From: Candidatus Parcubacteria bacterium
GTDB taxonomy: Bacteria > Patescibacteriota > Minisyncoccia > UBA6257 > 2-01-FULL-56-20
Length of the DNA stretch: 64,000 nt
NCBI GenBank assembly: GCA_027450205.1
Contig: DAIDJL010000005.1
Location: 251 to 64,250, forward strand
Reading direction: 5' to 3'
Below are positions 5,313-64,000 of this stretch, piece by piece. The notes below the pieces were generated by a model that was not told the DNA's origin, made no database searches, and saw only the letters and a list, made by a program, of their open reading frames with translations. Position numbers and translations under genes: made by a program. The first letter of the stretch is position 1. The number at the start of each line of letters is the position of its first letter.

Positions 5313-5323
5313 GATAGATAATC

Positions 5324-9334: not shown

Positions 9335-9348
9335 CCCGAACCGCTCAG

Positions 9349-10484: not shown

Positions 10485-10496
10485 TTATAAGAACCA

Positions 10497-12378: not shown

Positions 12379-12439
12379 ACGTCTATTCTATATCCTAATA
12401 GAATTAAAAGGCAGTCACTAAAAATTCGGCACTGAATTT

Positions 12440-12480
12440 GACAAAATACTTTTTTTTATATTATATATATACAGAAACAT
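12440..12480 (+). promoter_or_regulatory. sigma70-like promoter upstream of ndk
   Basis: TTGACA at ~12446 is followed by an AT-rich TATATTATATATA block. A perfect SD AAAGGAGGGG lies 5 nt before the ATG at 12503. Confidence 0.3.
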
Positions 12481-12502
12481 TTTTTCTTTGAAAGGAGGGG
12501 TG

Positions 12503-12925: not shown

Positions 12926-12927
12926 CC

Positions 12928-12962
12928 AGCCCGGACAGAAATACCGTCCGGGCTTTTTATTA
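12928..12962 (+). terminator. rho-independent terminator after ndk
   Basis: GCCCGGAC-agaaatacc-GTCCGGGC is followed by TTTTTATT. Confidence 0.55.
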
Positions 12963-12963
12963 A

Positions 12964-12996
12964 AAAAATGGGGGCGTCCTATTGGACGTCCCCGAG
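12964..12996 (-). terminator. rho-independent terminator after the minus-strand ATP-grasp gene
   Basis: On the minus strand, GGGGACGTCC-aata-GGACGCCCC is followed by CATTTTTTT. Confidence 0.5.
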
Positions 12997-12999
12997 AGA

Positions 13000-14244
13000 T
13001 TATTTTGTCATAATCTCGAATCGTTCATATACCTTCAACATCCTCGCCAGCACCTCTCCCGCAGTATTCCCCTTCACCTGGACCCATCCGGAACAACTCG
13101 TGTACTGCCGTTGAGATTGGATGATATCCCCCATGTTATAGTTGACGCCACCGTCAATGACTCCTTCAAGATTGCTTAGTTCATTGTAAGAAGAGATCTT
13201 GGTGATGACGCCATCGGCTAAAGGAAGGAACATATCCCCGACGCACTGCACCCCATTTGATGGCAATTCCGGAACAGTTCTTCCGACTATGACATCAATC
13301 AGTAAAGAGCAAACATCCACCCCGAAAGCGATACTGTGGTTCGAAAGCATATGCTCTCCGGGCGTACGCCATGCGAACTCACAAATAACGGGCTGCCCAT
13401 GGAAGTCGATGAATATCTCGGTGTGCATGTAGCCGTTCTTCAGACCCAGTTGATCGATTACCCCCTGGGCGACCTCCTTCCCATCAAATTTGGCAACCCT
13501 AGGAGATTCTTTGACAGTGATTTGGGCGAACTTCTCTTTTTTTTCCGCGAAGCTCAGGTTTGTATAGGGAAGCCACGCCGGAAACATCCCGATAACCTTC
13601 CCTTCCTGCACCAGCGCATCGAAACACCAAATCAGGTGTGGACAGTACGTTTCCACTATGAATCGCCCAGTAGAGTAATCGAGCTGAAGCGTTTCCAGTT
13701 GTTCCTTGTTTTCAATTTTATATACCTCCCTGGATGAAAATCCCCTGCGCCACTTCACAATGATGGGGAATCCATCATGTACATCGGCGAAGCCGACTAC
13801 TTCCTTCAATGACCCCGCTTCCTGATAGGATACGGTCGGAAGTCCGAGCTTCCGTAGCATATTCTTCATCGCAAACTTATCCCTCACGCAGAGAGCCTGA
13901 TACTCGCTCAATGCGCCGGGGAGCCCCAACAAAGAAGCAAACCGCTGGATCCGCTCCTGATGGAATTCGGAGTCGTTATAAAAGAAGTCAATTGTGATCC
14001 CATGAGCGTCACAGAAATGGACGAATCTGCGGGCTTCGTTCTCGACGTCCTCCGTTTTATCAAAAACAAAACAATGAATGTCGGCAGTGGCTGTGAGATG
14101 CGCCTTACTGAAAAGCGTGGCGCCTTTAAATCTCAGCAATACCGGGTTGATGGTCTCGTTCGATACCACCTTCCTTGAGAGAGTATTTTCATACTCTTCC
14201 ACGAAAAGCAGGGTGGGTTTTGCGACATCAAGCGCTCGCTTCAC
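13000..14244 (-). CDS. ATP-grasp domain protein
   Basis: Central ATP-grasp features are CVRDKFAMKNMLRKLGLPTVS, IIVKWRRGFSSREVYKIEN and ICEFAWRTPGEHM. The track start is a GTG immediately after the SD, so the start was moved to the second in-frame GTG 10 nt after AGGAGG. Confidence 0.55.
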   Translation of the reverse strand: MKRALDVAKPTLLFVEEYENTLSRKVVSNETINPVLLRFKGATLFSKAHLTATADIHCFVFDKTEDVENEARRFVHFCDAHGITIDFFYNDSEFHQERIQRFASLLGLPGALSEYQALCVRDKFAMKNMLRKLGLPTVSYQEAGSLKEVVGFADVHDGFPIIVKWRRGFSSREVYKIENKEQLETLQLDYSTGRFIVETYCPHLIWCFDALVQEGKVIGMFPAWLPYTNLSFAEKKEKFAQITVKESPRVAKFDGKEVAQGVIDQLGLKNGYMHTEIFIDFHGQPVICEFAWRTPGEHMLSNHSIAFGVDVCSLLIDVIVGRTVPELPSNGVQCVGDMFLPLADGVITKISSYNELSNLEGVIDGGVNYNMGDIIQSQRQYTSCSGWVQVKGNTAGEVLARMLKVYERFEIMTK

Positions 14245-14336
14245 GGAACGCACCTCCTCCTTTTGAAATGTGCATGATCCGGGAGATATCCGAATCTGTC
14301 AAGATTAAAGCACGTGATTAGCAGCTCTGTCAAATA

Positions 14337-14789
14337 TCACCGCGCTTCGGGAAATATCTCCTTTATTTTTTCTTCGGTCTCTTGGAGTTGGTTATCGAAA
14401 AGGAGGTAATTTTTAAGTGAACTCCTGGACGCCCATACATAACTTCTTACCTCATTTTTCTGAAGCAATACTTCATCATCCTCTCCTATGAAACGGAAGC
14501 CGAAGAAATACCGTTCCGAACCTTCATACTCCTGTCTGTTGCGAAGCAGCTTAATCTCTTTGAACTTGAATCGCAAGGGAAGGTCGCTCTTGCCGATCAT
14601 TTGGAGAGACGCTTTCTCGATGCCCAATTCTTCATGCACTTCGCGGTATACCGCATCCTCTAACGCTTCTCCGGGCTCAACGCCGCCTCCCGGAATCGCA
14701 AAGTATCGTTCTTTGAACGATTTTAAATTCACTAAAAGAAACTCCCCCTCTCCGTTACTTATGAGCGCCGCAACTCCTTTTCTATACAT
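14337..14789 (-). CDS. NUDIX hydrolase
   Basis: The Nudix box is GGGVEPGEALEDAVYREVHEELGI. Confidence 0.65.
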   Translation of the reverse strand: MYRKGVAALISNGEGEFLLVNLKSFKERYFAIPGGGVEPGEALEDAVYREVHEELGIEKASLQMIGKSDLPLRFKFKEIKLLRNRQEYEGSERYFFGFRFIGEDDEVLLQKNEVRSYVWASRSSLKNYLLFDNQLQETEEKIKEIFPEAR

Positions 14790-14799
14790 ATGGAATTCT

Positions 14800-15681
14800 T
14801 TATTTTAAAAATCGCCGACAAAGCACCTCTACCGCGCGCTCTTTCATTTTCTCTGGTATCCGCCTAAAATACAAATCTGGGTCGATGAGCTCCACCTCTA
14901 GAATCTCATACCGTGATCCGTTCTTTAAGAAATCAATTCTGCAAATATCGGGAGTGGCTTCGAATCTCTTCATAAAGTATTTTTTAAGCTCTACTGCTTT
15001 CTTTTGAAGCGCAGGAGAAATGGCTCCTGGACGCACATATATCGCATCTTTTTTCCCGCTCAAAATCCCGGGGAATCTCCTTATCCCATAAAGGATCTCT
15101 CCCCCGATCATAACGACCGATAATTCTCCCGCTATAATGGCCGATCGATATGGTTGAGCAATAAACCCTCCCTGCTTGTTATCCTCAATCGTGGATAGTC
15201 CTCGTGTGTTCGTCCCCGTTTTATATACAAATGTAAGATATCCGCTTTCAGATATGCGAGGTTTGACGACGATGATCCTTGCTCCCAATGTATCGCATGC
15301 CCGGGAAAGGATCCCTCGAAGTTCCGGCGGCCGTTTCACACCTTTCAATTGCAAAAGAATAGTCGGAATAGTTCCTAGTCGTGCTATTTCCCGTAAATAT
15401 TCGTACTTATCGATATTCCAGAAAACAAACGGGTAGTCATTCATCAGTTTAATCTTCTTTTTTTTAAGATCCTTTATTCGCTCAAGGAATCGCCGATAAC
15501 TTTTATGGTATCCCCAGATACTTTTCAGCATCACAAAATCGAACGACCTCGGCGCGGTCGCGATTTTCTCCAGGGGAATTATTTCCGAATGCATACCCCT
15601 AGCGATCAACGCGTCACGCACGAGGATATCCTCCGATATTTTCCCCGCATGTTTTTTTGAAGAGGCGATGTAGACGTTCAT
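14800..15681 (-). CDS. hypothetical protein, possibly ATP-grasp/RimK-like
   Basis: A 293-aa ORF with an ATG start. It has a weak resemblance to ATP-grasp ligases (GARIIVVKPRISESGYLTFVYKT, IGGEILYGIRRFPG). The call is not secure. Confidence 0.3.
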   Translation of the reverse strand: MNVYIASSKKHAGKISEDILVRDALIARGMHSEIIPLEKIATAPRSFDFVMLKSIWGYHKSYRRFLERIKDLKKKKIKLMNDYPFVFWNIDKYEYLREIARLGTIPTILLQLKGVKRPPELRGILSRACDTLGARIIVVKPRISESGYLTFVYKTGTNTRGLSTIEDNKQGGFIAQPYRSAIIAGELSVVMIGGEILYGIRRFPGILSGKKDAIYVRPGAISPALQKKAVELKKYFMKRFEATPDICRIDFLKNGSRYEILEVELIDPDLYFRRIPEKMKERAVEVLCRRFLK

Positions 15682-17246
15682 GAGAGTAATTCGATCGATC
15701 GCTTGAGTCGCAAAAATCCCGCCAATAAATCCTTGTAATCCAACGCCACAGTCGCTCTTGCGATGAGCTGATTACGGTCGGCCCAGAAAAAAGCTTTCCC
15801 AGTCAAGACCTTGATATTCCCGGATGTGTAAAGGAATTGTAGTAATGTTCTGTCGTCGACGATCTTGAATCCTTTATAAGTCTTTCCAAGCACCCTTGAT
15901 AAATCGAGGAGGGCAAAAAATCCGGACTCGGGATCAAGGACAATATCAACATCTTTGATGCCGGTCATTGCTTTGGCCGTATCAATAGCAAAACTATTAT
16001 CTCTTATGATGCTATTTAAGAGCGCCAGTTCTTCGCGTTTAAGTCGGTGCATGCCAAGCACGATAGCCTTCACAAAAATATAACGCTCGCGATATTTTTT
16101 TGTGACGGAGGCGAAATACTTCTCCCGTTTTTTTTCCTGCTTTTTCCCCGAAGGAAATGCTGCGCTCATAGCCGAGGATTGCAAGAGCGATAGCGAGTCG
16201 GATGCCTGAAAGATATTATCCCTCACCAAAGAACTAATTACTTCATCCGCGATGACGAGGCCAGACCTGATTCCCGCCAACCCATAGGATTTGGAAAGCG
16301 AATAAAGAGTGATGGTATTTTTAAACTGACCTGTCAGACTACAAATCGGTAGCGCAGGATTGCTCCTATCGTACTCCAGGCCAGCGTACGCAAGATCGTC
16401 GATCACGAACACTCCCGCCTTCCTACAAATATTTGCTATCGTCAACAAAAGAGACTTATCTTTCTCGCCATAAACTATCCCTGTAGGATTATGGGGATTC
16501 AGATTGACGAACGCTGCTACTCTTGGAGGGATATCAGAACGCCGAAACACGTATTTTCCGCGGTTCACATCGTAATCTCTTTGGAGCTCAGTGTTTATTT
16601 TTGCGATAAGTGATTCAAGTTTGTGGGAGTTTACCTTCCATCCATCAGTAGGAGACAACGGTAAAAGCCTCACCCTTCCTCCGACCCTTTCCGGGATGAA
16701 AGAAAAGAGTCCGTAATTGGGCGCGGTCATTAGCACGACATCCCCATAGTCCAATATAGCTTCCATTACAAGGGTGAATGCTTGCGTACTCGAGTGGGTA
16801 AAAATAATATTGTCCGACTTAACTTTCAAAGAATGGATGTTATTGAAGTATTTAATGATGGGCTCTTTATCGACGCCGTCCCCTGCCGCAAGTGGATAAT
16901 CGGAAAGTATCCTTCTTTCCATGGCGCTCTTCATATTAGAGATTGATAATTCGAACGGCTTGAATCGGGCGGGACTTCCGCCACCAAGCCTCACTTTCCC
17001 TACGGTCGGCCGTTTAAATCCTTTGATAAGAAGATTCAGGGAGAGGCTGTAATATTCGTATGCTTCGGCAGCCTCCTGCGTTTCGCGCGAGCTCCACGCG
17101 CCCCAAAGAGCATTGCCGATATGCGGAAGTCCCCCATAAGATAATCTGTTGACCTGGTTAGATGGATACATCCGCACCACTGATTTTATGGATCTAGGGA
17201 GGGTCTTGTCCTTGATGACTTTCTGCTTATCATTTTGCATAGCCAT
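15678..17246 (-). CDS. PLP-dependent aminotransferase, class I/II
   Basis: NLNPHNPTGIVYGEKD matches the NPxNPTG motif. YSLSKSYGLAGIRSGLVIAD matches SxSKxxGxxGxR with the PLP lysine. The track start is a TTG and was moved to ATG (MAMQNDKQ). Confidence 0.7.
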   Translation of the reverse strand: MAMQNDKQKVIKDKTLPRSIKSVVRMYPSNQVNRLSYGGLPHIGNALWGAWSSRETQEAAEAYEYYSLSLNLLIKGFKRPTVGKVRLGGGSPARFKPFELSISNMKSAMERRILSDYPLAAGDGVDKEPIIKYFNNIHSLKVKSDNIIFTHSSTQAFTLVMEAILDYGDVVLMTAPNYGLFSFIPERVGGRVRLLPLSPTDGWKVNSHKLESLIAKINTELQRDYDVNRGKYVFRRSDIPPRVAAFVNLNPHNPTGIVYGEKDKSLLLTIANICRKAGVFVIDDLAYAGLEYDRSNPALPICSLTGQFKNTITLYSLSKSYGLAGIRSGLVIADEVISSLVRDNIFQASDSLSLLQSSAMSAAFPSGKKQEKKREKYFASVTKKYRERYIFVKAIVLGMHRLKREELALLNSIIRDNSFAIDTAKAMTGIKDVDIVLDPESGFFALLDLSRVLGKTYKGFKIVDDRTLLQFLYTSGNIKVLTGKAFFWADRNQLIARATVALDYKDLLAGFLRLKRSIELLS

Positions 17247-17364
17247 ACGAAGTGTATAACTGCAGTTTACCTCATAGAGACAGCAAATCAACTTGTCGCT
17301 CGTTCAAACCCGACTGTTATGACTGAATAAAAAGAGCCCCCGAAGAAACGTTCTTTTTATACTG

Positions 17365-17439
17365 CGCGGCCGACCGGACTTGAACCGGCAACCCCCGCCG
17401 TGACAGGGCGGTGCTCTAACCAAATTGAGCTACGACCGC
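17365..17439 (-). tRNA. tRNA-Asp (anticodon GTC)
   Basis: The minus-strand sequence is GCGGTCGTAGCTCAATTTGGTTAGAGCACCGCCCTGTCACGGCGGGGGTTGCCGGTTCAAGTCCGGTCGGCCGCG. It has a 7-bp acceptor stem, a D-arm, the anticodon loop CTGTCAC (GTC), a T-arm GTTCAAG and discriminator G. No CCA is encoded. Confidence 0.85.
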
Positions 17440-17492
17440 AAATCTACCTTGAAGATTCTATAGTTTTTGTGGCGATAAATCAACCTTCTTTT

Positions 17493-19625
<2,133 letters not shown>

Positions 19626-38603: not shown

Positions 38604-39140
38604 TTAATGTGAAAGCTGCTGGAGCGCCTGGTCGACGGAGAGCGTGGTGGAGGCGGTGGTCGACGCGGTCGATGTCGATCCATCGGTGCCTGCGGCCGTC
38701 GTGGAAGCGGATGAGGTTGCCTGCACGCCGAGCGCGGCGGCGAAAACTTTGGTGAGCGCCGCAGGCGATGCGGCGACCGATCCCATCGCGGCAGTGGATG
38801 CCACCTGCGGATATTCAATATCCGCAAGCTGGATCTGCATATCGATCGCCTGCGCCTCCGCGTGCAATCCCTGCGGATCGATCACCGAATATTGGATGGG
38901 CGCAATGGAACTTGCCGGAGCAAAACCGTTCGTCAAAATAAGTATGAAAAATCCGGCGAGGGCGACGGCGGCCCCCGTTTCAAGCAGATGCAAAAAGGCG
39001 AACACCCCGCGCATCGTCATCCGCTCGCTTCGCGGAGAGAGCAAAATCTCCCGCTTGGAGCGCTGCGAAAATTGAGCGTCGGGCTCGATATTCCTGAATT
39101 GTTTAAGAATGTCAGATAATTTCATCGTCGTTGCTTTCAT
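38604..39140 (-). CDS. putative anti-sigma factor (membrane protein)
   Basis: Immediately downstream of, and overlapping, the ECF sigma gene. It has a single TM (VFAFLHLLETGAAVALAGFFILIL). Confidence 0.4.
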   Translation of the reverse strand: MKATTMKLSDILKQFRNIEPDAQFSQRSKREILLSPRSERMTMRGVFAFLHLLETGAAVALAGFFILILTNGFAPASSIAPIQYSVIDPQGLHAEAQAIDMQIQLADIEYPQVASTAAMGSVAASPAALTKVFAAALGVQATSSASTTAAGTDGSTSTASTTASTTLSVDQALQQLSH

Positions 39141-39675
39141 CACCCAGTTTCTTTTTTAACTCCCTGACGGCGCGATGCTGGGCAAGCTTCACTGCGCCTT
39201 CGGATTTTTTGAGGATCGCCGCGGCTTCCTTGAGCGGCAGATCTTCGATGAACCGCAGGATGATCACATCCTGATAGTCCGGCTTGAGCTCGGCGATCGC
39301 ACGATGCACATTCTCAAGCTGCATTTTTGTTGCGAGGTCGAACTGCGCGGCGGCGGGAATAATGGATGACTCCGGGTCAAGCTTGTCGAGACTCACATCG
39401 TCCTTCTTTGAACGATAGTGGTCGATCACCATGTTCCGCGCGATCTGGTAGAGCCAGCTCGAGAACGGATGCCCGCGGTGCCGGTAAGTGCGCACCTTCT
39501 GCCAGGCGGACAAAAACACGTGATGGGTGATATCCTCGGCTTCCTCACGGCTGCCGACCTTGACCACGATAAAACGGTAAATTGCCGGTTGATAGCGGTC
39601 ATAGAGAGAGCCAAAAGCCGAGGAATCGCCCCCGACGGCTGACCGAATGAGTTTTTCTTCCTCACCGTCTATCAT
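39112..39675 (-). CDS. ECF-type RNA polymerase sigma-70 factor
   Basis: Sigma region 2 (YQPAIYRFIVVKV...ITHHVFLSAWQKVRTY...FSSWLYQIARNMVIDHYR) and region 4 (IILRFIEDLPLKEAAAIL) are present. The track TTG start was moved to ATG. Confidence 0.75.
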   Translation of the reverse strand: MIDGEEEKLIRSAVGGDSSAFGSLYDRYQPAIYRFIVVKVGSREEAEDITHHVFLSAWQKVRTYRHRGHPFSSWLYQIARNMVIDHYRSKKDDVSLDKLDPESSIIPAAAQFDLATKMQLENVHRAIAELKPDYQDVIILRFIEDLPLKEAAAILKKSEGAVKLAQHRAVRELKKKLGDESNDDEII

Positions 39676-39840
39676 GTACAACGTGAATTATGTGGATAAG
39701 TTACTCGTCTCTAGCAAAAATGCCCCACACAACATAGGGCACTCTTTATACGTTCAGTATAGCTCTTTGGGGTCGGGCAGGCAAAGCAGGGAGACCTTTT
39801 CTTTGCCTGCCCGCCGCCGCTCCCCTATACTATAGAAACT

Positions 39841-53063: not shown

Positions 53064-54359
53064 TCAGTTTCTAGGTAAGCCCATGCGAGCAACCACCTGA
53101 CGAAATCGCGGCTCTTCGCGAACCAAATCCCAGCGTATATCGACGTTGAGATGGATCAGCCAATCGCATCTCTGATCGAATGCTCGTTCGAGACACTGAA
53201 GCGCCTCTTCCTTCTTTCCAAGCCCAAGAAATACTAACGCCTCATTCCAAGCAGACACGTAAACGGCAGATTTGAGGTTGCGCAACTTGTTAAGGCAAGC
53301 CAACGCAGACTTTGTATCACCTTGTTTCCCGTATGCGTAGCCGAGGCTTCCGTAGGCGCCCGGTGACTCTGCGATTTCGAGCGAGCGCTTGAATTCCTTG
53401 ATCGCGGTGGATTCGTCGCCCGCCACTTCCCAAACGTAGCCGGACATCATATGGCCCACCGCAAATGGTCCAAAATCGATGAGTGCCCGTTCGGATTCGG
53501 CAAGGGCCTCTTCCGTGCGCTTGGCGAATCCAAGCATCCACGGCAGGGTGAAGACAGTCATAGGGGAACGCCAGTCCAAGTCGGCGGCCCGCCGTGCATG
53601 AGCGATCCCATCGTCGAATCGACCGCGCGCGATGTCAAAATGCGCTTGGATGAGATGCGCATATTCGTCATCTGCATTCAGTTCGAAGGCTCTTGCGAGG
53701 TCCTTCTCCGCTCCTGTCCAGTCGCGGTCGTAGGTCGCACGGGTGAGGCCGTAGATCGCGTACGCGGAGGAGAATTTCGGATAATGAACCAAGGCTTCCT
53801 GCAAGACGGCTCTTGCCCGTTGAACGCTTCGCTGAGGAAAATCGAGGCAGAATCCTGAATGTCCTTGATTGATGTAATTGATGGCGAGACACGCATAGGC
53901 GTCAGCATCAGGCCCATGCCGCAAAACCTCCTCATAGCGCTGTACGGCTGTTCGAAGTGCGGGGAGGGTAAAAACGTTCATGCGATCGAGGGCGATCGCC
54001 TTCAATCGTTCCGCTTGGCTTACCGAAGGACCGTCAACCTCGGTAACGGGAACCCCCGAAGCAAGGTGATAGCCTCGCCCGCGAGCAGTGGCTATAAATT
54101 TTCGGGGAAGCTTGCGACGAAGCTCCTTGATGACATCATCGACGGGATGGCGATTCCATTTCGCCGGAGCACGATTCCAGGGAGTGAACTCTTCCCGAAG
54201 GATCACTCCGCCTTTTCGCGCCGCGAGTTGGAGCAATACCTCGAATTCAACCCCGGTCAGCTCAACGATCACTCCGCCCATCCGTGCCTCACGCAGATGG
54301 GCGTCGAGGAATAACGGGCCGACTCTGAAAGACGGTTGCGGGTCATTCGAGAGCGTCAT
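53064..54359 (-). CDS. winged-helix (OmpR/CadC-type trans_reg_C) + TPR-repeat transcriptional regulator
   Basis: The N-terminal trans_reg_C pattern is FRVGPLFLDAHLREARMGGVIVELTGVEFEVLLQLAARKGGVILREEF...VIKELRRKL...IATARGRGYHL. The C-terminal ~280 aa have TPR-like Ala/Tyr/Gly periodicity. Confidence 0.55.
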   Translation of the reverse strand: MTLSNDPQPSFRVGPLFLDAHLREARMGGVIVELTGVEFEVLLQLAARKGGVILREEFTPWNRAPAKWNRHPVDDVIKELRRKLPRKFIATARGRGYHLASGVPVTEVDGPSVSQAERLKAIALDRMNVFTLPALRTAVQRYEEVLRHGPDADAYACLAINYINQGHSGFCLDFPQRSVQRARAVLQEALVHYPKFSSAYAIYGLTRATYDRDWTGAEKDLARAFELNADDEYAHLIQAHFDIARGRFDDGIAHARRAADLDWRSPMTVFTLPWMLGFAKRTEEALAESERALIDFGPFAVGHMMSGYVWEVAGDESTAIKEFKRSLEIAESPGAYGSLGYAYGKQGDTKSALACLNKLRNLKSAVYVSAWNEALVFLGLGKKEEALQCLERAFDQRCDWLIHLNVDIRWDLVREEPRFRQVVARMGLPRN

Positions 54360-55654: not shown

Positions 55655-55878
55655 GAAGTCACTCTTCGAAGACCCCTCTGTTGGGTCTGTTGCAGTGTAA
55701 TTTTTTCTGTATGTAATCAGCTTCTTTGCAGGGAGTATCGGCATGATGCCGTCTAGAAATCCTGTCAGATTTGCGTGAGGGCATCGACCGCTACAAAATC
55801 GACTACATCGATGTAGCGGGAAAAAGCAGATGCGTGGCCGGAATCGGTCATATCAGATGAAATATCTAAGGTTTACGA

Positions 55879-55930
55879 TGGTCGGGGCGGAGGGATTCGA
55901 ACCCCCGACCCTCTGCTCCCAAAGCAGAAT
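55879..55930 (-). other. 3' fragment of a tRNA-Pro(TGG) gene (anticodon arm through CCA), a likely att-site remnant of an integrative element
   Basis: The minus strand reads TCTGC-TTTGGGA-GCAGA-GGGTC-GGGGG-TTCGAAT-CCCTC-CGCCCCG-A-CCA. It has a perfect anticodon arm (loop UUUGGGA, as in E. coli proM), a T-arm and an acceptor 3' strand with encoded CCA. The upstream 5' half (needs CGGGGCG + D-arm) is absent. Confidence 0.55.
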
Positions 55931-56004
55931 AAGGCGGCTATGGTTCCTTGTGGAAATCTGCTGCGTGGTTGTGCTTTGGATTGAATGGGTTAGAGTATCG
56001 CTAC

Positions 56005-57285
56005 TTACCCTTGTTGATCGTTGTGGCTCTCGGAGGCTTTGACCGCTACAAAATCATCTACATTCAGGATTTCTCGTTGTATCGGCAAAAGGGGCGACCA
56101 GAGGAAAGCTCCGCCGGAAACCGGAGACGAATCACAAAGGTTTATCGCCTCAACCCACGTCATCGCGACGGCAAGTAGCCCAAGCGACGGTGCAGTCGCT
56201 TGGATATTCTCGAACATGACCCGACCACAATCCCCGGGCCCATCGCCGAGTGTTTCGGCAAACTGCGGTGCGGTGTTCGTGTTCATTGGCTCGGTAAAGA
56301 TGACCTTCGCGATCTCACGACTTGGCGGAAGCGAATGCCAGCTTATGCGGGGCCGACAGAAATTCGTACCAACACCGCACTCGACGAGCCAAGGGAAGCC
56401 CGCCTCCACTGCAATTCGCCTAGCATCCATATTGTCGAAGCCGAGAAAGGCAAACGCAGACTGCAATTTACCGCACTTCCAACCCCATTTGATTTCACGT
56501 TGTTCTTCGGTGACGACCCATCCCCAGCCTCGGCAGAGCGCGGCAAGATATTCGACCTTAGGTTTATTGCGCCAAAGTTCTAATGCTTGCTCTTCTAGGA
56601 GTATCTGAGTCCGCTGGTTACAATCCTCAAACGGATCCTTATCGAGGAGATGAACCCGAAGTCTCTGCCCATTCGCCAAAAAGAATGCCAAGGCCAGAAA
56701 CGCTTGCCCGACCTGCCCGGCGCCTAAGACTGAAAATGGGGGTAAAACGATCTCTGAGGGCACGATTGGGAGACTGACCGAGTTTTGGACCCACGCCTCG
56801 CGGAAGGGAGGGATACCAACGGCTTGTGCAAGCGCAGAAAATGCCAAGTAACCGGATATTGCGCACGCGCAGATCGGATGAGCCGGATTATGTCCCGGCA
56901 GTGTCGTTCCGTAAGCAATCTCATTACCACGCGCATCTCCCCTGATTTCGATTCCGTGCCCTTGCTCGCCTGGTATGTCGCCGAGGAGGATGCGAATGCC
57001 ACCTTCCGGTTCACCGCTTCGAAGCTCGCACCGAGGTCCTAGCGCGACCGGTGCCGATGGCATCTGGTCTAATCCCGCATGGATGAGAATCCGTCCGGTG
57101 AACTGACGCTCGAGGGCCGAAGCCAGAAACCAAACACACGGCCAAAGGTCATTCGCAGTCGCTCTCGTCGGTTCGACGATGATTGAGACATCTTTAGCGA
57201 GACGACGATCAAGCTCTTCAGACGTCAATGCATCGATATCGGCCTTCAGAAGCCCGTTGATAATCCGATCATTATGGCGTTCCAT
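56005..57285 (-). CDS. E1-like (ThiF/MoeB/UBA superfamily) ubiquitin-activating-like enzyme
   Basis: The Rossmann motif is FSVLGAGQVGQAFLALAFFLA, in a 426-aa protein. It is last in a 4-gene minus-strand operon with JAB, E2-like and Ubl-like genes. Confidence 0.65.
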   Translation of the reverse strand: MERHNDRIINGLLKADIDALTSEELDRRLAKDVSIIVEPTRATANDLWPCVWFLASALERQFTGRILIHAGLDQMPSAPVALGPRCELRSGEPEGGIRILLGDIPGEQGHGIEIRGDARGNEIAYGTTLPGHNPAHPICACAISGYLAFSALAQAVGIPPFREAWVQNSVSLPIVPSEIVLPPFSVLGAGQVGQAFLALAFFLANGQRLRVHLLDKDPFEDCNQRTQILLEEQALELWRNKPKVEYLAALCRGWGWVVTEEQREIKWGWKCGKLQSAFAFLGFDNMDARRIAVEAGFPWLVECGVGTNFCRPRISWHSLPPSREIAKVIFTEPMNTNTAPQFAETLGDGPGDCGRVMFENIQATAPSLGLLAVAMTWVEAINLCDSSPVSGGAFLWSPLLPIQREILNVDDFVAVKASESHNDQQG

Positions 57286-57293: not shown

Positions 57294-57875
57294 TTATACA
57301 AGTACGACGCGTCGGCCAATTTCTGATCCACGAAATTCATGCCAGCCGTCGTTAGTTCGCGCATGAATCCCAATTCGCGCTAAATCCCACGGCTCTCGAC
57401 CGTACCAAGGCACCACAAGCGACCAGAACCCGATCCGTGAGCATATCTGGTTGTCTTCATCGACCGCACTTAGTCCGACCCAGTCTCGCGGATGCGTATG
57501 AATGAGCGAAACGATCTTTTGGCCTTTTGTCGCAAGCGTACGATACAGTTCGAATTTCGCTCGCTCCGAGAGCTCAAGCGAGAGCGGTCCAGCATTGTCT
57601 TCGCAAAGTTCGTGGTGATAAAGCACGTCGGAGGCGATCGCGTCGTCGCCATCCAATGACCCGATCCAGATTGCCGCGCTTTCCCGCCATCCGGCGCTCC
57701 GGTCAGCCAATTGCCGGAGCGTTCTCTCGAATAACGACTGTGGAACCAGCAGTCGAGTATGCTTTAGCTCTTCCGGTTGTACCCGCGCCCGGGAACGTGA
57801 AGCATCGTCCTCAGAAAATCGAGGTATCCCACGATTTGGTTTTCCTTTTTTTGCCATGCTCGGCTTTGTCTCCAT
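57294..57875 (-). CDS. JAB/MPN (JAMM) metallopeptidase, deubiquitinase-like
   Basis: The JAMM motif is HTHPRDWVGLSAVDEDN (HxHx7Sx2D), with an upstream Glu. The track TTG start was moved to ATG (METKPSMAKK). Confidence 0.65.
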   Translation of the reverse strand: METKPSMAKKGKPNRGIPRFSEDDASRSRARVQPEELKHTRLLVPQSLFERTLRQLADRSAGWRESAAIWIGSLDGDDAIASDVLYHHELCEDNAGPLSLELSERAKFELYRTLATKGQKIVSLIHTHPRDWVGLSAVDEDNQICSRIGFWSLVVPWYGREPWDLARIGIHARTNDGWHEFRGSEIGRRVVLV

Positions 57876-58198
57876 TCTGGGTGGTGGTGAATCCCTTGGC
57901 GATCTTGATCCCAACAGATAAACCCAGGTGACGACCTAAATTTGATTGTGCCTTCAAAAGTCACATCGCCATCGGGCCATACTTGCGGACTACCGCACGG
58001 GATGAACGAGCAGCTGATCGGCTCATTCCAATATCCAGTACAATCGAACCGCGCCAAGAACCCTCGACCATCGGGGGCGTTCAGACGTACTTGCACTACG
58101 TCGCCATCTCGCCCCGCGAGTTCCCAGAAACCCTGATCTACACCGGCCCGAAATTCCGGGGATGCAACGTCGCGCGTGAGCCGTTCGCCGCTATCCAT
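57764..58198 (-). CDS. candidate E2-like (UBC-fold?) conjugating enzyme
   Basis: A 144-aa Cys-containing protein (FICWDQDRQGIHHHPEW) sits between the Ubl-like and JAB genes. The assignment rests mainly on operon position. It overlaps the upstream gene by 8 bp. The 57764 end overlaps the JAB coding region, so the true stop may differ. Confidence 0.3.
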   Translation of the reverse strand: MDSGERLTRDVASPEFRAGVDQGFWELAGRDGDVVQVRLNAPDGRGFLARFDCTGYWNEPISCSFIPCGSPQVWPDGDVTFEGTIKFRSSPGFICWDQDRQGIHHHPEWRQSRAWQKKENQIVGYLDFLRTMLHVPGRGYNRKS

Positions 58199-58682
58199 TT
58201 CTTTCCGGTCCCGGCTTCACGAGCCACACCGTCTTGCAGCCCTCAAAGCTTCCGATGTGTTTGTTCTCGTTGATCGCGGGGCCTTCCGGACTGCCCTCTC
58301 GCATCTCAAGATTGGCGCTCGCGGTGTGCGCGATCTTGAAGTGCTTGCACGCCCACTGAAATACGTGCTTCCACTTGGCACGGGCGGGAAAGTGGTGGGT
58401 CGCAGACTCACTTTCAAAGTGGATATCAACGCACTCCAGCTTGAGTTTGCCGTGGTGCCGACCTGGATGGTAGCACTCGGCTTCGGCGGTGAATTCCTCG
58501 ACGAGTTCTTCTGTTCCGAGGGCGAGCACCGAAGCCAACTTCTCGGCTAGGTGCCTGTGGTTGGGTTCCACATCGCACTCGACCTTTACGCTTTCCACCG
58601 GCCTGCCGTGACGATGGACTTCAATCGTCACGACTACCGCTTCCCCGGCGGAACCTCCTTCGCTAAGCTGCTGGTTTTCCAT
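58191..58682 (-). CDS. candidate ubiquitin-like (tandem beta-grasp?) protein ending in Gly
   Basis: It is the first gene of the operon. The start was moved from the GTG to ATG (MENQQLSEGG) with an SD-like AAAGGAAAA. The C-terminus is ...LVKPGPERNG*. VVVTIEVHRHGRPVESVKVECDV and KLKLECVDIHFESE look like beta-grasp strands. Confidence 0.3.
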   Translation of the reverse strand: MENQQLSEGGSAGEAVVVTIEVHRHGRPVESVKVECDVEPNHRHLAEKLASVLALGTEELVEEFTAEAECYHPGRHHGKLKLECVDIHFESESATHHFPARAKWKHVFQWACKHFKIAHTASANLEMREGSPEGPAINENKHIGSFEGCKTVWLVKPGPERNG

Positions 58683-58818
58683 AGGTTGTAGTTTTCCTTT
58701 CTGTCTCCGCACTTGACGGAGCGACAGGATGACCTTATCCTGTAATAGGAAGTCTAGCGAATCGCCCCGTAGGTGTCAACACCATCAGGATGTGAATATC
58801 CTGTGCAAGGACAAAACC

Positions 58819-59184
58819 ATGAGCATTTACGAACAAATCGGAGCGAAAATAAGAGAACTTCGGGTGCATCACCTCGGAAAGGGAATCAGCCAGGAAACCC
58901 TTGCCGAAGCGATGAACACTACCCCCAACACGATTTCCCGATGGGAAACCGCCACATATAAACCATCCATTGAGGATTTGGAGAAATTGGCACGGTATTT
59001 CGGAACCACCATCGGGGTATTCTTTCCAAACATCGATCCGGGGGCACGCGTTCAGGCACTCCTCAGTGCTACAGGCGACCTCGACGATGATGACCTTGAC
59101 GAGCTTACCCGTTACGCACAGTTTCGTCGGGCCAGGAAGGAGTTGGATCAGGCGAAGAAACGAGGGAAGCGAAAAGCGCTATGA
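58819..59184 (+). CDS. XRE-family HTH regulator (CapH-like)
   Basis: The HTH is LGKGISQETLAEAMNTTPNTISRWET. The start was moved to ATG (MSIYEQIGAK). It is divergent from the Ubl operon and overlaps the downstream peptidase gene by 4 bp. Confidence 0.6.
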   Translation: MSIYEQIGAKIRELRVHHLGKGISQETLAEAMNTTPNTISRWETATYKPSIEDLEKLARYFGTTIGVFFPNIDPGARVQALLSATGDLDDDDLDELTRYAQFRRARKELDQAKKRGKRKAL

Positions 59185-59819
59185 TGGCGAATCCAAACTA
59201 CGCATCACTAAAGGAGCTTGCGCGAGCGAAGAGGGCGCAATACGGTGTGACTACCGAGGCTCTCAACCTGATCGTAGTGAGGAAGATTTACTCAGACGAA
59301 GGGATTCGCATCGACAATTGGGAGTTCCCGCGAACCATCCGCGCTGCCTACATGAGCGATGACGCGGACCCTTCGGTCGCGATCAACAAGACACTGCCGA
59401 GAGAACCGCGTCTCTTCTCACTAGTGCATGAGCTGAAGCACCACTACGTTGACCGGCCGAAGATCGAGCAGGGGCAAATCAAGTGCGGCGACTACAACGA
59501 GAACCAGACAATTGAAATTGGAGCTGAGGTGTTCGCCGCCGAATTTATCTATCCGGAAACCGAGTTTCTGGAACGGCTGCAACTCCTGAATATCGAACCG
59601 GGACAATGCTCGCCCGAGGATGTTGTACGCCTCAAGCGCGAATGCAGGGCCTGCGTCAGCTATCAGTTTCTAAGGAAACGGCTCGTGCGGCTGGGATTCG
59701 CCATGCCTCACGCCTTCGATAAAATCCAGTTTCAAAAACTCGAAGAACAACTGTATGGGCCGCCGATCTACAAGCAGAAATGGTTCCAGCGGCGGCGTGG
59801 TCGTGCCCAGGCAAAATAG
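59181..59819 (+). CDS. ImmA/IrrE-family zinc metallopeptidase (CapP-like, DUF955)
   Basis: The HEXXH motif is VHELKHHYVD, with a downstream Glu/Cys-rich region. Confidence 0.65.
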   Translation: MMANPNYASLKELARAKRAQYGVTTEALNLIVVRKIYSDEGIRIDNWEFPRTIRAAYMSDDADPSVAINKTLPREPRLFSLVHELKHHYVDRPKIEQGQIKCGDYNENQTIEIGAEVFAAEFIYPETEFLERLQLLNIEPGQCSPEDVVRLKRECRACVSYQFLRKRLVRLGFAMPHAFDKIQFQKLEEQLYGPPIYKQKWFQRRRGRAQAK

Positions 59820-59957: not shown

Positions 59958-61334
59958 TTACCTGTCACGTCTTCTTGGCCCTTTTCTACTTGCTCCTTTG
60001 CGCTCTGGTTCATCAAGTTTCAGACTCTGAATGCGCTGGAGTAGCTGCGCGGCGGATTCGTAGGACCGGCCTTCGCGCGCAGCAAGATCGGCTTCGGTGG
60101 GCACCAACTCGCCACGGAAGGCCTTGGCGAGAATAGATTGTGGAAGACGATCTATTTGCTGTTGGGTCGCTTTGTAGTGTGCCTCGATCTTGTCTGCGAG
60201 TGCGAATAATACGTTAACACGCCGCACGATCTCCTCTTGCTCTTCGATCAAGGGAAGATTGGCTTCATACTCTTCAAGAAGATCTTTGCGCACCCCATCC
60301 TGCCCAACGGTTCGCTCAGATGAGCTGATTACATAATTGCGTAGCGGCGGATCTTGCAGCAGAATAAAGAGAAAATCGTTATTCAATTCATTAGATGAGA
60401 TCGGCACCGCTTTCATGAGAGCGACGTTGTATGCACCTTCAATTCCCCGCAGAATCTGAAACAGTGGTGGACCATATCGCCCTATCATCACATCAGTCTT
60501 CCTGCAAAGGCGTCGCGCCATATCTTTTGGTATATAGGTCAGGTTGTTATCCGATTTGTAGTCGCGAATTTGAATGAAACGGATATAACCCTCCTGCGCC
60601 TTATAGGCAAAATGCTTCTTCGGTGGTTGACTGCCGCCGATAATCTCACATATGGAACCTATTGTCTTAGTGCCCCAACTTGCAAAATCGATCTCATGCT
60701 CCTCCCGCCAGTCGGCGGTGAGGCGGCCGGAGCAGGCTGCTGCGAGAACGGATTGACGGAAGCGCTTGAGCAGCACTGGAATCTTCGCCATGCGCTCCTT
60801 GCACTGCTCAACTTCCGCGAGGAGCTTCTCCAGCCTTTCCGCGATTCTCCACTGCTCGGCGGAAGGCGGCACCGGGATACATAGTGTTTTTATAAACTCA
60901 GTCGGAACACGAAGCTGCCCCGCCGTACCTGTGAAATTCTCCTTTGCCTGACGACGAACACTGCTCTGTGACAGATATCGATAAACATAAAGCGGGCTAA
61001 TGCCCGACAATGGCCGGGCAACATGCACTTCAGTCGTGCCGCATCCAAGGCCATTCCGTAGATTTCGTGCAACCGCGCCCTTGCCGTTTTCCATACAGGG
61101 AGTGATCTTTGCGAAGAGGACATCGCCGTCTGCAAAATGGGTAAACCCTTTTCGAACATCACCCAAAGGACGCTCTTCTCGAAAAAGAAAATCGGGGGAA
61201 TCTTCGCTGATTGCGGCCATAGGAGCAAACGTAACCATTGTTTTGTCGTCAATGGTTTTGTCATGACGGGGGTTGATTGCTGAAACATCGACGAGTGCAG
61301 CAATATCCCAGCCCTCGGGAAGTTCGTCTGTCAT
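59958..61334 (-). CDS. hsdS: type I restriction-modification specificity subunit
   Basis: There are two target-recognition domains with conserved central/C-terminal helical repeats (LPLIEEQEEIVRRVNVLFALADKIEA). The size is 458 aa. There is a 4-bp overlap with hsdM. Confidence 0.75.
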   Translation of the reverse strand: MTDELPEGWDIAALVDVSAINPRHDKTIDDKTMVTFAPMAAISEDSPDFLFREERPLGDVRKGFTHFADGDVLFAKITPCMENGKGAVARNLRNGLGCGTTEVHVARPLSGISPLYVYRYLSQSSVRRQAKENFTGTAGQLRVPTEFIKTLCIPVPPSAEQWRIAERLEKLLAEVEQCKERMAKIPVLLKRFRQSVLAAACSGRLTADWREEHEIDFASWGTKTIGSICEIIGGSQPPKKHFAYKAQEGYIRFIQIRDYKSDNNLTYIPKDMARRLCRKTDVMIGRYGPPLFQILRGIEGAYNVALMKAVPISSNELNNDFLFILLQDPPLRNYVISSSERTVGQDGVRKDLLEEYEANLPLIEEQEEIVRRVNVLFALADKIEAHYKATQQQIDRLPQSILAKAFRGELVPTEADLAAREGRSYESAAQLLQRIQSLKLDEPERKGASRKGPRRRDR

Positions 61335-62746
61335 GCTTCCACGCCTTCCTCTTTTTCCACGAGGGCGACAATCTCGCGCAGGCTATCCACAATGGCTTCG
61401 AGTTCCGTGATCGCTTCGGCGGCAAGCTCCTGCGGTTCCGGCAGGTCGTCGGAATCTTCGAGGGATTCATCTTTCAGCCAGGTCACGTCAAGCTTGTAGC
61501 CGCGTTCCTTGATGGCCACGAGCGGGAAACTGCGGAAGCGTCCGGTCTCTCCCCCATCCGTTCGCTTACTCTGCCCGTTCGGGTCCTTGCCGTAGGCCTT
61601 TTCGAACTCGGCGAAGTGCTCGCGGGTGAGCGGGCGGTCTTTCTTGGTGATGCCGGGCACGTTGGAGCGGGCGTCGAAAATCCAGACCCTTTCCGTCGGC
61701 AGGCCTTTCTGGAAGAAGATGACGTTTGCCTTGACGCCCTGGCTATAGGGAGTGAATGTTCCGCGCGGAAGGCGCAGCACGGTATGCAGATTGCAGTCCT
61801 GCATGAGGATTTCAAAGACTTCGCCCGCCTTGTCCTCAAAGAGGCAGTTGTCTGGCAACACAATGGCGGCACGGCCGCCCGGCTTGAGCGTATTTACGAC
61901 GTGCTGCACGAAGTTGAGCTGCTTGTTGCTGGTTTCGATGGTGAAGTCTTCGCGCTCGGGTGCCTGGTTAGCCCCCTTGGTGCCAAACGGCGGATTGGTG
62001 AGTACGACATCGTAGCGCTCGCCACGGTCCGGCTCATAGAGCGTGTCGCCGAGATAAATACGCGGCTGGACGCCATGCAGGTAGAGATTCATGAGCGCAA
62101 GGCGGCGCGGGCGGGCGACGAGGTCCTGTCCGTAATACGTCTGCGTGCGGATGCGCTTTGCGTCGGCGCGGTCAAAGACCCCCTTGCTCTCGGCCACGAG
62201 CCATTCGTAGGCGCTCACGAGGAATCCGCCAGTGCCGCACGCCGGATCGGCGATGGTGAAATCCTTGCGTCCGCGCGGATCGGGCTTCATCACGCGACAG
62301 ATGGTCTGGATGAGCACGCGCGGCGTAAAGTATTGGCCCGCGCCCTTCTTGCCTTCGCTTGCGGCCTTCTCAAGCAGTCCTTCAAAGGCGGCGCCTTTCA
62401 CGTCCACGTCGAGAGAGGACCATTCCTCTTCATCGATCATGTCGATCAGGCGGCGGAGATTGACGGGATTGTTGAAACGCGAGGTGGCCTGGGTAAAGAT
62501 GTCGCCGAGCAGCCCTTCGGCGGAGCGCAGCTTGCGCAGCACGTCGTTGTAATGATCGGTGAGGTCGGTGCCGGAGAGTTTCTTCAGAGTGTCCCAGTCA
62601 CATCCTTTGGGTATCTCCACCCCCTTTTCTTCGGCCATCTTCAAAAAGAGCAAATAGGTAAGCTGCTCGATGTAGTCGCCGTAGTCCACGCCGTCGTGGC
62701 GCAGCGTGTGGCAGAAGCCCCAGAGTTTTTGAACGATATCACTCAT
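61331..62746 (-). CDS. hsdM: type I R-M N6-adenine DNA methyltransferase subunit
   Basis: Motif IV is VLTNPPFGTKG and motif I is DPACGTGGFL. The N-terminal HsdM_N helix bundle is present. Confidence 0.85.
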   Translation of the reverse strand: MSDIVQKLWGFCHTLRHDGVDYGDYIEQLTYLLFLKMAEEKGVEIPKGCDWDTLKKLSGTDLTDHYNDVLRKLRSAEGLLGDIFTQATSRFNNPVNLRRLIDMIDEEEWSSLDVDVKGAAFEGLLEKAASEGKKGAGQYFTPRVLIQTICRVMKPDPRGRKDFTIADPACGTGGFLVSAYEWLVAESKGVFDRADAKRIRTQTYYGQDLVARPRRLALMNLYLHGVQPRIYLGDTLYEPDRGERYDVVLTNPPFGTKGANQAPEREDFTIETSNKQLNFVQHVVNTLKPGGRAAIVLPDNCLFEDKAGEVFEILMQDCNLHTVLRLPRGTFTPYSQGVKANVIFFQKGLPTERVWIFDARSNVPGITKKDRPLTREHFAEFEKAYGKDPNGQSKRTDGGETGRFRSFPLVAIKERGYKLDVTWLKDESLEDSDDLPEPQELAAEAITELEAIVDSLREIVALVEKEEGVEA

Positions 62747-64000
62747 GCAGCGATGGCCTCATTGATTTTTTGTACGAGCGCGGGAAGGCGACCCTCGAAG
62801 ACCTTGGCGGCTTTCCCCCATCCGCCAAAATCGCTCAAAACCGGCTGACTGTCGAAGTCATCCTGATCGATGGAGAGATTCTCCTGCAGGTGCGTCCGGA
62901 TGCGGTCGAGCCAGACGAGTTGATCGGCGGTGAAGGCGTTGCCATTTTGGATGGCGTGCATGGCCCGGTCCGCGCGTTCTGAGGCGTTGAGGAGCGGGTT
63001 TTGGGTATCGGCGGCGTTCTTCACCATGGAGATGATGTCGGCAAGTGCCTTGTGGCGGCGCAGTTCAAAGGCTTTTTGGAGATTGGGCACGGTGAACCGC
63101 TGCGGCGTGGCGGCCAGCGTGTCGCGCAAGGACTTGAGCGCGTCGGGGTTCCAATTCTGCGGATGCTTGAGCAGGATCGCAATGGCGTCGATGTCCGACT
63201 GATGGTCGGCGACGTAGGCGGCAAAGGCGGCGAGATAGTTATCGGGCTTATATTCTTTGCCGTCCAGTCCGCGCACGAGCCATTCGGACGAGACCTCATC
63301 CTGCGCCGTATGGGCGACGAAAAAGACGCGGGGTTTGCGCTTGTAATCCTGGAGCAGGCGCTGGAAGTCAGGATTGCGCAGCAGGCCCATCGTGGGAGTG
63401 AAGTTCTTCTGGAGGGCCGCAGCGAGAGTTTTTGCGAGTGCGGCGAGATCGCCTTCAGGCACGAAGGCGGCAAAATCCGCGCGGGCATCGCCGTGCATTT
63501 CCTTATCAATGCGCTGGAGACGCTTGGTGAGGCAGCGAATGTTGTATTCCCGGTCCCGATTGGCCCAGATGTCCTCGACGATCTCAGGGATAGTGCGCGT
63601 GACTCCGGCGGGCGGATCGGCGGTCATGGCCGTCGATTGGCGGAAGTATTCGAGCAGGGTTCCGTCGAAGCAATCGAAGACGACGAAATGCGATTTGTCG
63701 GGATACTTTTCGCCTTTGCGCGTGCCACGCCCCAACATCTGCTCGAAGAGGATGCGGGACTTTACGGGGCGCAAAAAGACAATGAATTCGAGATCGGGGA
63801 TGTCCACGCCGGTGGTGAGCATATCCACGGAGACCACAATCCCGGGATTGGGGCGGTTGCGGAACTCTCGGATGCGCTGAAGCGGGCGGTCCACGGTTGG
63901 GCTGCCGGTGATCTTCTGGACGAAGGAGTCTCCCCTGCCGAAGACATCCCGCGCCTGGTCCACGAGTTGGTCCGCATGGGAGGTGTGCGGAAGGTCGTTC
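62743..64000 (-). CDS. hsdR: type I restriction enzyme R subunit (C-terminal part; 5' end beyond window)
   Basis: Helicase motif VI is VDMLTTGVDIPDLEFIVFLRPVKSRILFEQMLGRGTR. The frame is open to the window end (the track start GTG is not real). There is a 4-bp overlap with hsdM. Confidence 0.75.
   Translation of the reverse strand, partial: NDLPHTSHADQLVDQARDVFGRGDSFVQKITGSPTVDRPLQRIREFRNRPNPGIVVSVDMLTTGVDIPDLEFIVFLRPVKSRILFEQMLGRGTRKGEKYPDKSHFVVFDCFDGTLLEYFRQSTAMTADPPAGVTRTIPEIVEDIWANRDREYNIRCLTKRLQRIDKEMHGDARADFAAFVPEGDLAALAKTLAAALQKNFTPTMGLLRNPDFQRLLQDYKRKPRVFFVAHTAQDEVSSEWLVRGLDGKEYKPDNYLAAFAAYVADHQSDIDAIAILLKHPQNWNPDALKSLRDTLAATPQRFTVPNLQKAFELRRHKALADIISMVKNAADTQNPLLNASERADRAMHAIQNGNAFTADQLVWLDRIRTHLQENLSIDQDDFDSQPVLSDFGGWGKAAKVFEGRLPALVQKINEAIAA

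Follow-up and report, generated by a model that had tools for sequence, protein, structure and literature searches.

Two operator palindromes and a CapH/CapP-type repressor-peptidase pair as the likely switch of a divergent bilABCD operon

The region of interest in the current work is located in a 64,000-nucleotide stretch of contig DAIDJL010000005.1, assigned to a Candidatus Parcubacteria bacterium, and this entire stretch is referred to as the window. It comprises a minus-strand bilABCD operon, encoding a ubiquitin-like conjugation system, and two plus-strand genes which face this operon across a shared intergenic region and which encode a helix-turn-helix (HTH) protein and a zinc peptidase. 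The HTH gene (58819..59184) extends from an ATG codon at 58819 to a stop codon ending at 59184 and specifies an XRE-type protein of 121 aa (Pfam HTH_3, E=1.2e-14), whose assignment as a CapH-like repressor is based on this Pfam match, on PADLOC capH, on an hhalign alignment to Thauera CapH and on an AlphaFold2 (AF2) model. The peptidase gene (59181..59819) specifies 212 aa matching Pfam Peptidase_M78, formerly DUF955 (E=1.2e-10, above the gathering score), and is assigned as CapP-like with the additional use of PADLOC capP, AF2, Foldseek and hhalign. The stop codon of the former and the start codon of the latter share 4 bp (ATGA, 59181-59184); the coordinates of both genes and their overlap are as described in an earlier note made from the sequence alone. 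The same note had placed approximately 135 bp between the divergent transcription units; the divergence stands, while the length requires a small correction, since bilA starts at 58682 (not 58683) and the regulatory region between bilA and the HTH gene therefore measures 136 bp (58683..58818). This layout is conserved in relatives.

A mechanically generated list of open reading frames (ORFs) also contains a longer HTH form of 151 aa starting at 58729, which is probably not used. The 121-aa form is backed by an identical NCBI gene call (P0121), and is favoured both by the lengths of several hundred HTH homologues (116-122 aa) and by the presence of AAGGA, a ribosome-binding site, 8 nt 5' of the ATG at 58819. 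A scan of one genome per species retrieved 80 loci encoding the peptidase family, in approximately 68 of which the HTH and peptidase genes are adjacent.

All four proteins encoded by the minus-strand operon match the corresponding PADLOC models BilA to BilD, in the order ubiquitin-like protein, E2-like protein, JAB deubiquitinase and E1. The ubiquitin-like protein BilA (bilA, 58191..58682, 163 aa; PADLOC BilA 2.9e-8) has a translation ending in ...PERNG, thus with a C-terminal Gly, and is followed by the E2-like BilB (bilB, 57764..58198, 144 aa; Pfam DUF7665/BilB-like 2.1e-12, PADLOC BilB 2.5e-15), the JAB deubiquitinase BilC (bilC, 57294..57914; PADLOC BilC 3.2e-20 over residues 51-202), the translation of which contains an HTHP...S..D motif, and the E1-like BilD (bilD, 56005..57285, 426 aa; PADLOC BilD 6e-23), which is 50-80% identical to BilD of the related loci L006, L081 and L082. 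The longest bilC ORF, opening with TTG at 57914, overlaps bilB by 150 nt (57764-57914); because the PADLOC BilC match opens at residue 51, the true bilC start is probably internal and near the end of bilB.

Two perfect 18-bp palindromes of the pattern CAGGAT-N6-ATCCTG, 61 bp apart, are present in the intergenic region, in which the earlier note had proposed to look for an inverted-repeat operator. The distal operator candidate, CAGGATGACCTTATCCTG (58725..58742), is situated at a distance of 43 bp from the start codon of bilA and at -94 relative to that of the HTH gene, and the proximal candidate, CAGGATGTGAATATCCTG (58786..58803), at -33 relative to the latter. When a single mismatch is allowed, the pattern occurs three times in the 64-kb window, as compared to 0.09 occurrences expected from shuffled sequences. 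The position of the palindromes is conserved: when every exact AGGA-N8-TCCT was counted in 919 kb of sequence from 58 related loci carrying an HTH-peptidase pair, 56 of the 79 matches were located at -100 to -30 relative to the start of the HTH gene, with two peaks near -94 and -34, and the core positions of the operator are shared by relatives from many phyla. The eight Bil loci which carry the pair (the window, L006, L081, L082, L084, L088, L093 and L094) all contain both sites at a distance of exactly 61 bp, with variable spacers. Conversely, in six Bil operons which belong to the same clade but are not accompanied by the pair (L089, L092, L097, L098, L099 and L101), the 500 bp upstream of bilA contain neither site. 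In the repressor family the recognition-helix residues N37, T38, S40, R41, W42 and E43 are invariant, which fits the invariant core of the half-site. On the basis of this conservation, the palindromes are assigned as putative operators.

A scan with consensus hexamers predicts a bil promoter on the minus strand (TTGACA-17-TAGACT, 58751..58779; 10 of 12 positions), located between the two operators, and a promoter for the HTH-peptidase pair on the plus strand (TTGACG-17-TATCCT, 58713..58741; 9 of 12 positions), whose -10 hexamer lies inside the distal operator. The sequence TGTCAA beside the proximal site, which corresponds on the plus strand to the outward-facing bil -35, is conserved in relatives as TGTCAAC, and a TTGAC sequence 12 bp to the left of the distal site is conserved in the Bil loci with the pair. 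The region is thus predicted to consist of two face-to-face promoters, with the proximal operator abutting the bil -35; the distal operator would cover the start site of bil transcription together with the -10 of the promoter serving the HTH-peptidase pair itself.

The palindrome recurs in perfect form at 39256-39273 (CAGGATGATCACATCCTG), 19.5 kb away, and this third copy, considered as a possible further operator, is located within a minus-strand sigma-70/extracytoplasmic function (ECF)-type gene (39112-39681), where it encodes ...QDVIIL.... In random sequence of 64 kb, an exact match of 12 bases would be expected approximately 0.004 times, a likelihood which for the copy at 39256 is raised by common codons.

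The similarity of the HTH protein to CapH extends over residues 3-100 in PADLOC (capH, 3.5e-7). For alignment of profiles by hhalign, the experimentally studied CapP and CapH of Thauera sp. K11 were taken from plasmid pTX1, and residues 6-70 of the repressor align to the HTH domain of this CapH with a probability of 94% (E=9.5e-8). An AF2 model built from an alignment of database homologues consists of an HTH domain (residues 1-68) of high confidence, a short linker, and two helices (74-84 and 90-120) of lower confidence, as would be expected for an element that folds on oligomerisation. Conserved residues of this C-terminal part are L81, S83, A84, T85, Y99, A100, R103 and R106, the last four being invariant, and its most conserved motif is Y99-A-x-F102-R103-x-A-R106. 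Foldseek comparison of the repressor monomer retrieved generic XRE regulators, with DdrO among the fold matches, and is not discriminating.

The 212-aa peptidase belongs to the ImmA/IrrE superfamily (Peptidase_M78, PF06114), as it combines an HEXXH motif and a downstream Glu with an M78 fold. The motif VHELKHHYVD corresponds to residues 82-91, and the complete HEXXH...E triad, upon which the reading in the earlier note depended, is present and invariant (H83, E84, H87 and E112). A homologue search returned more than 1000 members; among the best 120, which were examined and are 58-94% identical, almost all have a length of 200-220 aa. In a 37-member alignment, the invariant residues of the catalytic region are H83, E84, H87, H88, C102, G103, D104, Y105, N106, E112, E116, P125 and E126, and those of the C-terminal tail are G193, P195, Y197, K198, W201, F202 and R206. 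The AF2 model (predicted local distance difference test, pLDDT, 91.9) contains the peptidase domain to approximately residue 135, followed by helices at 145-154, 161-170, 184-192 and 200-211.

The top Foldseek matches of this model in the PDB are IrrE (3dti, 1.5e-5), PprI with bound single-stranded DNA (ssDNA; 8sln, 1.8e-5), Thauera CapP (7t5t, 3e-4) and a mycobacterial HTH-peptidase regulator. The alignments are 165-182 columns long and extend past the peptidase domain of approximately 135 residues, with template modelling (TM) scores of approximately 0.5 when normalised by the query and of 0.36-0.47 by the longer targets. Together with the PADLOC matches for CapH, CapP (1.3e-9) and BilA-D, they uphold the earlier description of a CapH/CapP-like pair facing a ubiquitin-like-E1 operon. 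The hhalign comparison of the family profile with Thauera CapP pairs residues 78-133 with 91-150 only (E=1.8e-4); it matches H83/E84/H87 to H96/E97/H100 of CapP, E112 to the zinc ligand E129, C102 to the cysteine-switch residue C113, and D104 to D115. The loop carrying Cys102 is six residues shorter than that of Thauera CapP and has a lower pLDDT. A cysteine switch is, judging from this alignment, very probably present in the 212-aa peptidase.

The 80 loci of the peptidase family are distributed over Acidobacteriota, Nitrospira, Alpha- and Gammaproteobacteria, Planctomycetota, Cyanobacteria and lineages of the candidate phyla radiation, the closest copies of the pair being found in Terriglobia/Acidobacteriota assemblies. 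A Bil operon is adjacent in only one of them (L006, from Terracidiphilus). The associated cargo was surveyed by clustering and Pfam annotation of neighbouring genes, using a crude gene call, in 54 loci, and is usually immediately adjacent to the pair and divergent from it. The most common divergent cargo, present at 18 of the 54 loci, is a JAB-E1 fusion accompanied by Prok-E2_E, Multiubiquitin or DUF6527 (6E/Bub type); further cargos encode SMODS nucleotidyltransferases, a SAVED protein, ThsB-type TIR proteins, DUF2188 or DUF3892. On the annotated Nostoc plasmid pNsp_c, genes for multiubiquitin, a hypothetical protein and ThiF are likewise divergent from HTH and ImmA/IrrE genes. When the peptidase family was compared to 72,556 plasmids, only two significant matches (E <= 1e-5) were obtained, and a comparison to 50,697 phage records yielded none. 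On account of the latter result, a role as a prophage immunity module was rejected. The pair, its operators and the outward-facing promoter behave as a portable regulatory cassette.

When metagenomes were scanned with BilD, 19 loci were returned, and among those with enough upstream sequence four carry the HTH-peptidase pair. Other Bil operons are accompanied by different regulators. In L089 and L092, a co-directional pair composed of an HTH protein and a weakly M78-like protein of 233-235 aa is situated directly upstream of bilA (L089:3399-4492, L092:3475-4532), and in L097 and L098 a divergent gene for a CI-like HTH protein (139 aa) overlaps that of a 341-aa protein (L097:2992-4433, L098:2939-4380), for which a Pfam search gave no match and which is possibly an undescribed sensor partner. 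Regulators are thus swapped on a constant Bil cargo, mirroring the swapping of cargos on a constant regulator. In L081, a cassette 94% identical to that of the window is found, with bilABCD, near genes for an integrase, a Replic_Relax relaxase and a TrwB-like ATPase (coupling protein; 12264-16253), which suggests that it resides in an integrative mobilisable element. Downstream of bilD, L081 and L082, which are the closest relatives, both carry DUF3892 and a 95-aa gene, to which YdjM is added in L081 (L081:4306-5318, L082:5773-6381).

The mechanism of CapH/CapP has been described for the cyclic oligonucleotide-based antiphage signalling system (CBASS) operons of E. coli MS115-1 and Thauera sp. 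K11 (Lau et al. 2022, 10.1101/2022.04.27.489752; Calloji et al. 2026 preprint, 10.64898/2026.05.16.725639). E. coli CapP consists of a peptidase domain (1-141), an HTH-like domain (142-182) and a GAF domain (182-288), the last of which also contacts the HTH domain of CapH (10.64898/2026.05.16.725639; 10.1101/2022.04.27.489752), and in both CapP and IrrE the groove for ssDNA lies between the peptidase and GAF domains (10.64898/2026.05.16.725639). CapH possesses a two-helix C-terminal domain, in which it is cut by CapP between F82 and R83 (10.1101/2022.04.27.489752), and a cysteine-switch loop between the HEXXH motif and the third ligand is present in approximately 33% of CBASS CapPs (Lau et al. 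2022). The pair in the window resembles CapH/CapP in its 4-bp gene overlap and its divergence from a defence operon (a layout found, with CBASS, in Thauera pTX1), in the aligned HEXXH+E site and cysteine-switch Cys, in the combination of an XRE HTH with a predicted two-helix C-terminal element, and in having one operator candidate just upstream of the predicted -35 of the cargo, as has been described for CapH. It differs in that CapP has 288-289 aa with peptidase, HTH-like and GAF parts, whereas the peptidase described here has 212 aa without GAF and can be aligned to CapP over approximately 55 residues only; in that a single 22-bp site has been described for CapH as compared to two operators 61 bp apart; and in that the cargo is Bil instead of CBASS.

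Control of Bil operons by CapH/CapP-type regulators is already known, and the present locus adds one more case. By Chambers et al. (10.1101/2023.09.26.559546; Nature 2024), CapH/CapP is reported for 25 of 162 (15%) type II BilABCD operons, being in all but one case upstream and divergent with a shared promoter region, and by Ye et al. (PMC11601596) CapH and CapP are reported upstream of, and divergent from, 31% of Bub operons; in both surveys, according to their methods, the regulators were identified by the Pfam annotations PF01381 and PF06114. The suggestion in the earlier note that regulation of a ubiquitin-like system by such a pairing would be informative has thus been anticipated, for Bil by the former and for Bub by the latter survey. 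The published CapH/CapP-Bil operons share with the window the order bilA-bilB-bilC-bilD, the upstream location of capH and capP on the opposite strand and the shared promoter region; a difference is the origin of the locus described here, which is an uncultured lineage of soil type and not Rhizobiaceae. The same short peptidase family accompanies the JAB-E1/multiubiquitin (Bub/6E-type) operons. New in the current work are the operator and its arrangement as two sites, the finding that the cassette is portable as a whole, and the combination of a very probable cysteine switch with the absence of GAF in a widespread subfamily; neither operators nor the absence of GAF are described in the accessible portions of the two surveys.

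Among other HTH-peptidase pairs, DdrO/IrrE (PprI) of Deinococcus is similar in that the peptidase has its best structural matches in IrrE and PprI, and in that DdrO is among the fold matches of the repressor; cleavage of DdrO occurs after a hydrophobic residue followed by Arg, and the same logic is proposed here. IrrE possesses a GAF domain and no cysteine switch, and DdrO controls a chromosomal regulon rather than an adjacent cargo operon. ImmA, encoded by Bacillus ICEBs1 and phage phi105, is a short M78 peptidase without GAF which cleaves the adjacent HTH repressor ImmR upon DNA damage. ImmR/ImmA controls excision of a mobile element, whereas for the pair described here no relatives were found in the phage records, and its neighbours are of defence type.

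Taken as a CapH/CapP-type switch, the cassette would hold the divergent bilABCD operon, as well as itself, in a repressed state until a stress signal is perceived. The 121-aa protein, as a dimer or dimer of dimers, would bind both palindromes, where the sites have sequence and comparative support and the binding is inferred. The two sites are predicted to bracket the bil promoter, the distal one also containing the -10 of the pair's promoter, so that both transcription units would be switched off when the sites are occupied; looping would be permitted by their spacing of 61 bp. By homology, the peptidase would be kept inactive by coordination of Cys102 to the catalytic zinc (the 'cysteine switch'). 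DNA damage or phage infection, putatively sensed as ssDNA, would then release the peptidase, and the repressor would be cut in its C-terminal oligomerisation element, with F102|R103 as candidate position, after which DNA binding would be lost and bilABCD transcribed. Conjugation by BilABCD of the ubiquitin-like BilA to structural proteins of phages has been established in other Bil systems.

This explanation as a whole is considered likely. Regulation of bilABCD by the pair is its firmest component, and is held with good confidence, and derepression by peptidase cleavage of the repressor is regarded as probable. The identity of the signal is more tentative: ssDNA bound as in CapP or IrrE is an extrapolation which falls somewhat short of an even chance. 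In this respect the pairing of repressor and peptidase proposed in the earlier note stands, and its assumption of a trigger by DNA damage or ssDNA does not simply carry over to a peptidase without GAF.

Several observations weigh against the CapH/CapP-type switch as formulated above. No GAF domain is visible in the AF2 model, which has only helices and no beta-sheet after residue 135, and such a domain cannot fit in a protein of 212 aa with a helical C-terminus; the length is well short of the 288-289 aa of CapP, and the PADLOC capP match covers only positions 4-123 of the 242 in the profile, that is its N-terminal half. Because GAF takes part both in the ssDNA groove, in CapP as in IrrE, and in the docking of CapH by CapP, neither the ssDNA trigger nor the docking mode is simply transferable. 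Similarity to the characterised proteins is marginal: when PDB chains were searched with the peptidase, its core, the family profile and the HTH protein, no significant match to CapP, IrrE, CapH or DdrO was obtained (no PDB match by phmmer; 7t5t at E=2.1 with the family profile), so that the link of the peptidase to CapP and IrrE rests on the fold search and hhalign. The C-terminal domain of the repressor could not be aligned to that of Thauera CapH by hhalign, for which reason F102/R103, selected by analogy, is a guess as cleavage site. Finally, the promoter hexamers are consensus matches only.

The absence of GAF is also the starting point for a variant in which the repressor and peptidase operate by the same logic and the trigger is other than CapP/IrrE-style ssDNA, namely a protein partner, in the way that RecA or RapI act on Bacillus ImmA, a redox or zinc change at Cys102, or nucleic acid bound through the basic/aromatic tail. 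The variant would account for the strict conservation of the C-terminal tail, which has no counterpart in CapP, and for the uniform length of approximately 210 aa among more than 1000 members, which indicates a stable design of the short form rather than a truncation. It sits less easily with the conservation of the cysteine-switch Cys and adjacent Asp, which in CapP couple ssDNA sensing to activation, and with the nature of the cargos (Bub, CBASS-like, DUF2188 and DUF3892), since the list published for CapH/CapP-like regulators contains the same types (10.1101/2022.04.27.489752). On balance it is a possible explanation, held with limited confidence.

The remaining alternatives concern the target of the switch, and are disfavoured by the conserved outward-facing -35, the adjacency statistics, the lack of phage relatives and the gene orientation. 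The pair might be a self-contained, self-regulating addiction or toxin-antitoxin (TA)-like module, consisting of an Xre antitoxin and a COG2856-type peptidase, with Bil a mere neighbour in a defence island; its HTH-first order and gene overlap resemble TA modules, it is mobile among many different neighbours, and its operators keep fixed distances from the HTH start whatever the cargo. Nevertheless, the conserved TGTCAA between the operators points to the cargo, which is mostly immediately adjacent and divergent, Bil loci without the pair are also without operators, and in the characterised system deletion of CapH derepresses the neighbouring operon (10.1101/2022.04.27.489752), which together make such a module improbable. 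Even less credence is given to an ImmR/ImmA-type switch governing excision or transfer of the carrier element in place of Bil. The integrase, relaxase and TrwB-like genes near the closely related L081 cassette and a transfer-messenger RNA (tmRNA)-like 3' fragment just past bilD in the window would agree with it, but the L081 mobility genes are convergent and several genes away, an integrase or excisionase is not consistently adjacent across the 80 loci, and the phage collection contains no relative. A role of the HTH protein as a C-protein-like controller of the downstream type I restriction-modification (R-M) genes is rejected on gene orientation: although there are fold and profile matches to R-M controller proteins, and hsdS, hsdM and hsdR follow the pair both here and in L012, these genes are convergent, which would place their promoter beyond hsdR and far from the operators; the adjacency is seen in only two of approximately 58 loci, and C-proteins are not paired with peptidases.

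With regulation of bilABCD by a CapH/CapP-type switch as the preferred explanation, the locus would represent a clear instance, supported by comparison, of a ubiquitin-like defence operon under stress control. Beyond what is given in the accessible text of the published surveys, it provides concrete parts, being an 18-bp operator, a two-site layout, predicted promoters, a candidate cleavage site and a regulator family without GAF. Should ssDNA still activate the short peptidase, sensing would require a smaller minimal unit than previously assumed; otherwise, a second trigger exists for the same switch. The invariant basic and aromatic tail may, speculatively, act as a substitute nucleic-acid surface. 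A broader proposal, put forward with considerable reserve, is that peptidases of approximately 210 aa without GAF might form a distinct sensor class in the CapP/IrrE superfamily, employing another ssDNA surface or another signal, and moving together with the repressor, two operators and outward promoter as a plug-in cassette which has repeatedly become attached to Bil, Bub, CBASS-like, TIR, DUF2188 and DUF3892 operons across many phyla.

The type I R-M operon that is convergent onto the peptidase gene occupies 59958-63963 of the window and consists of hsdS (59958-61334), hsdM (61331-62746) and a partial hsdR (from 62743). L012, from Bryobacteraceae, has the same order of HTH, peptidase and hsdS/M/R families, with a JAB-E1 fusion as cargo. 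A similar R-M adjacency has been noted for CapK/CapS (PMC13373217, 2026).

On the other side of the operon, the sequence past bilD (55780-56063) contains, on the minus strand, a sequence resembling the 3' end of a tRNA or tmRNA (GGTCGGGGGTTCGAATCCCTCCGCCCCGACCA). The match to Rfam tmRNA at 55879-56001 is weak (E=0.007) and does not reach the gathering score, and ARAGORN predicts neither a tRNA nor a tmRNA beside bilD. Copies of a 29-nt direct repeat are present on either side of the fragment (55780-55808 and 56035-56063), and the latter copy lies in the last bilD codons, where the 426-aa BilD of the window departs from its 416-aa relatives; the repeat and the tmRNA-like fragment look like an island boundary or the remnant of an attachment site. 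Between this island and genes for pilin-like and large secreted proteins, a minus-strand gene (53064-54359) encodes a 431-aa protein with an OmpR-type winged-helix DNA-binding domain (Trans_reg_C) and TPR repeats. Across the window, the G+C content of positions 1-18000 is mostly 0.45-0.49, with 0.54 in the initial 2 kb, and is 0.52-0.60 over 18001-64000, and a tRNA-Asp gene (17364-17439) is located near this change.

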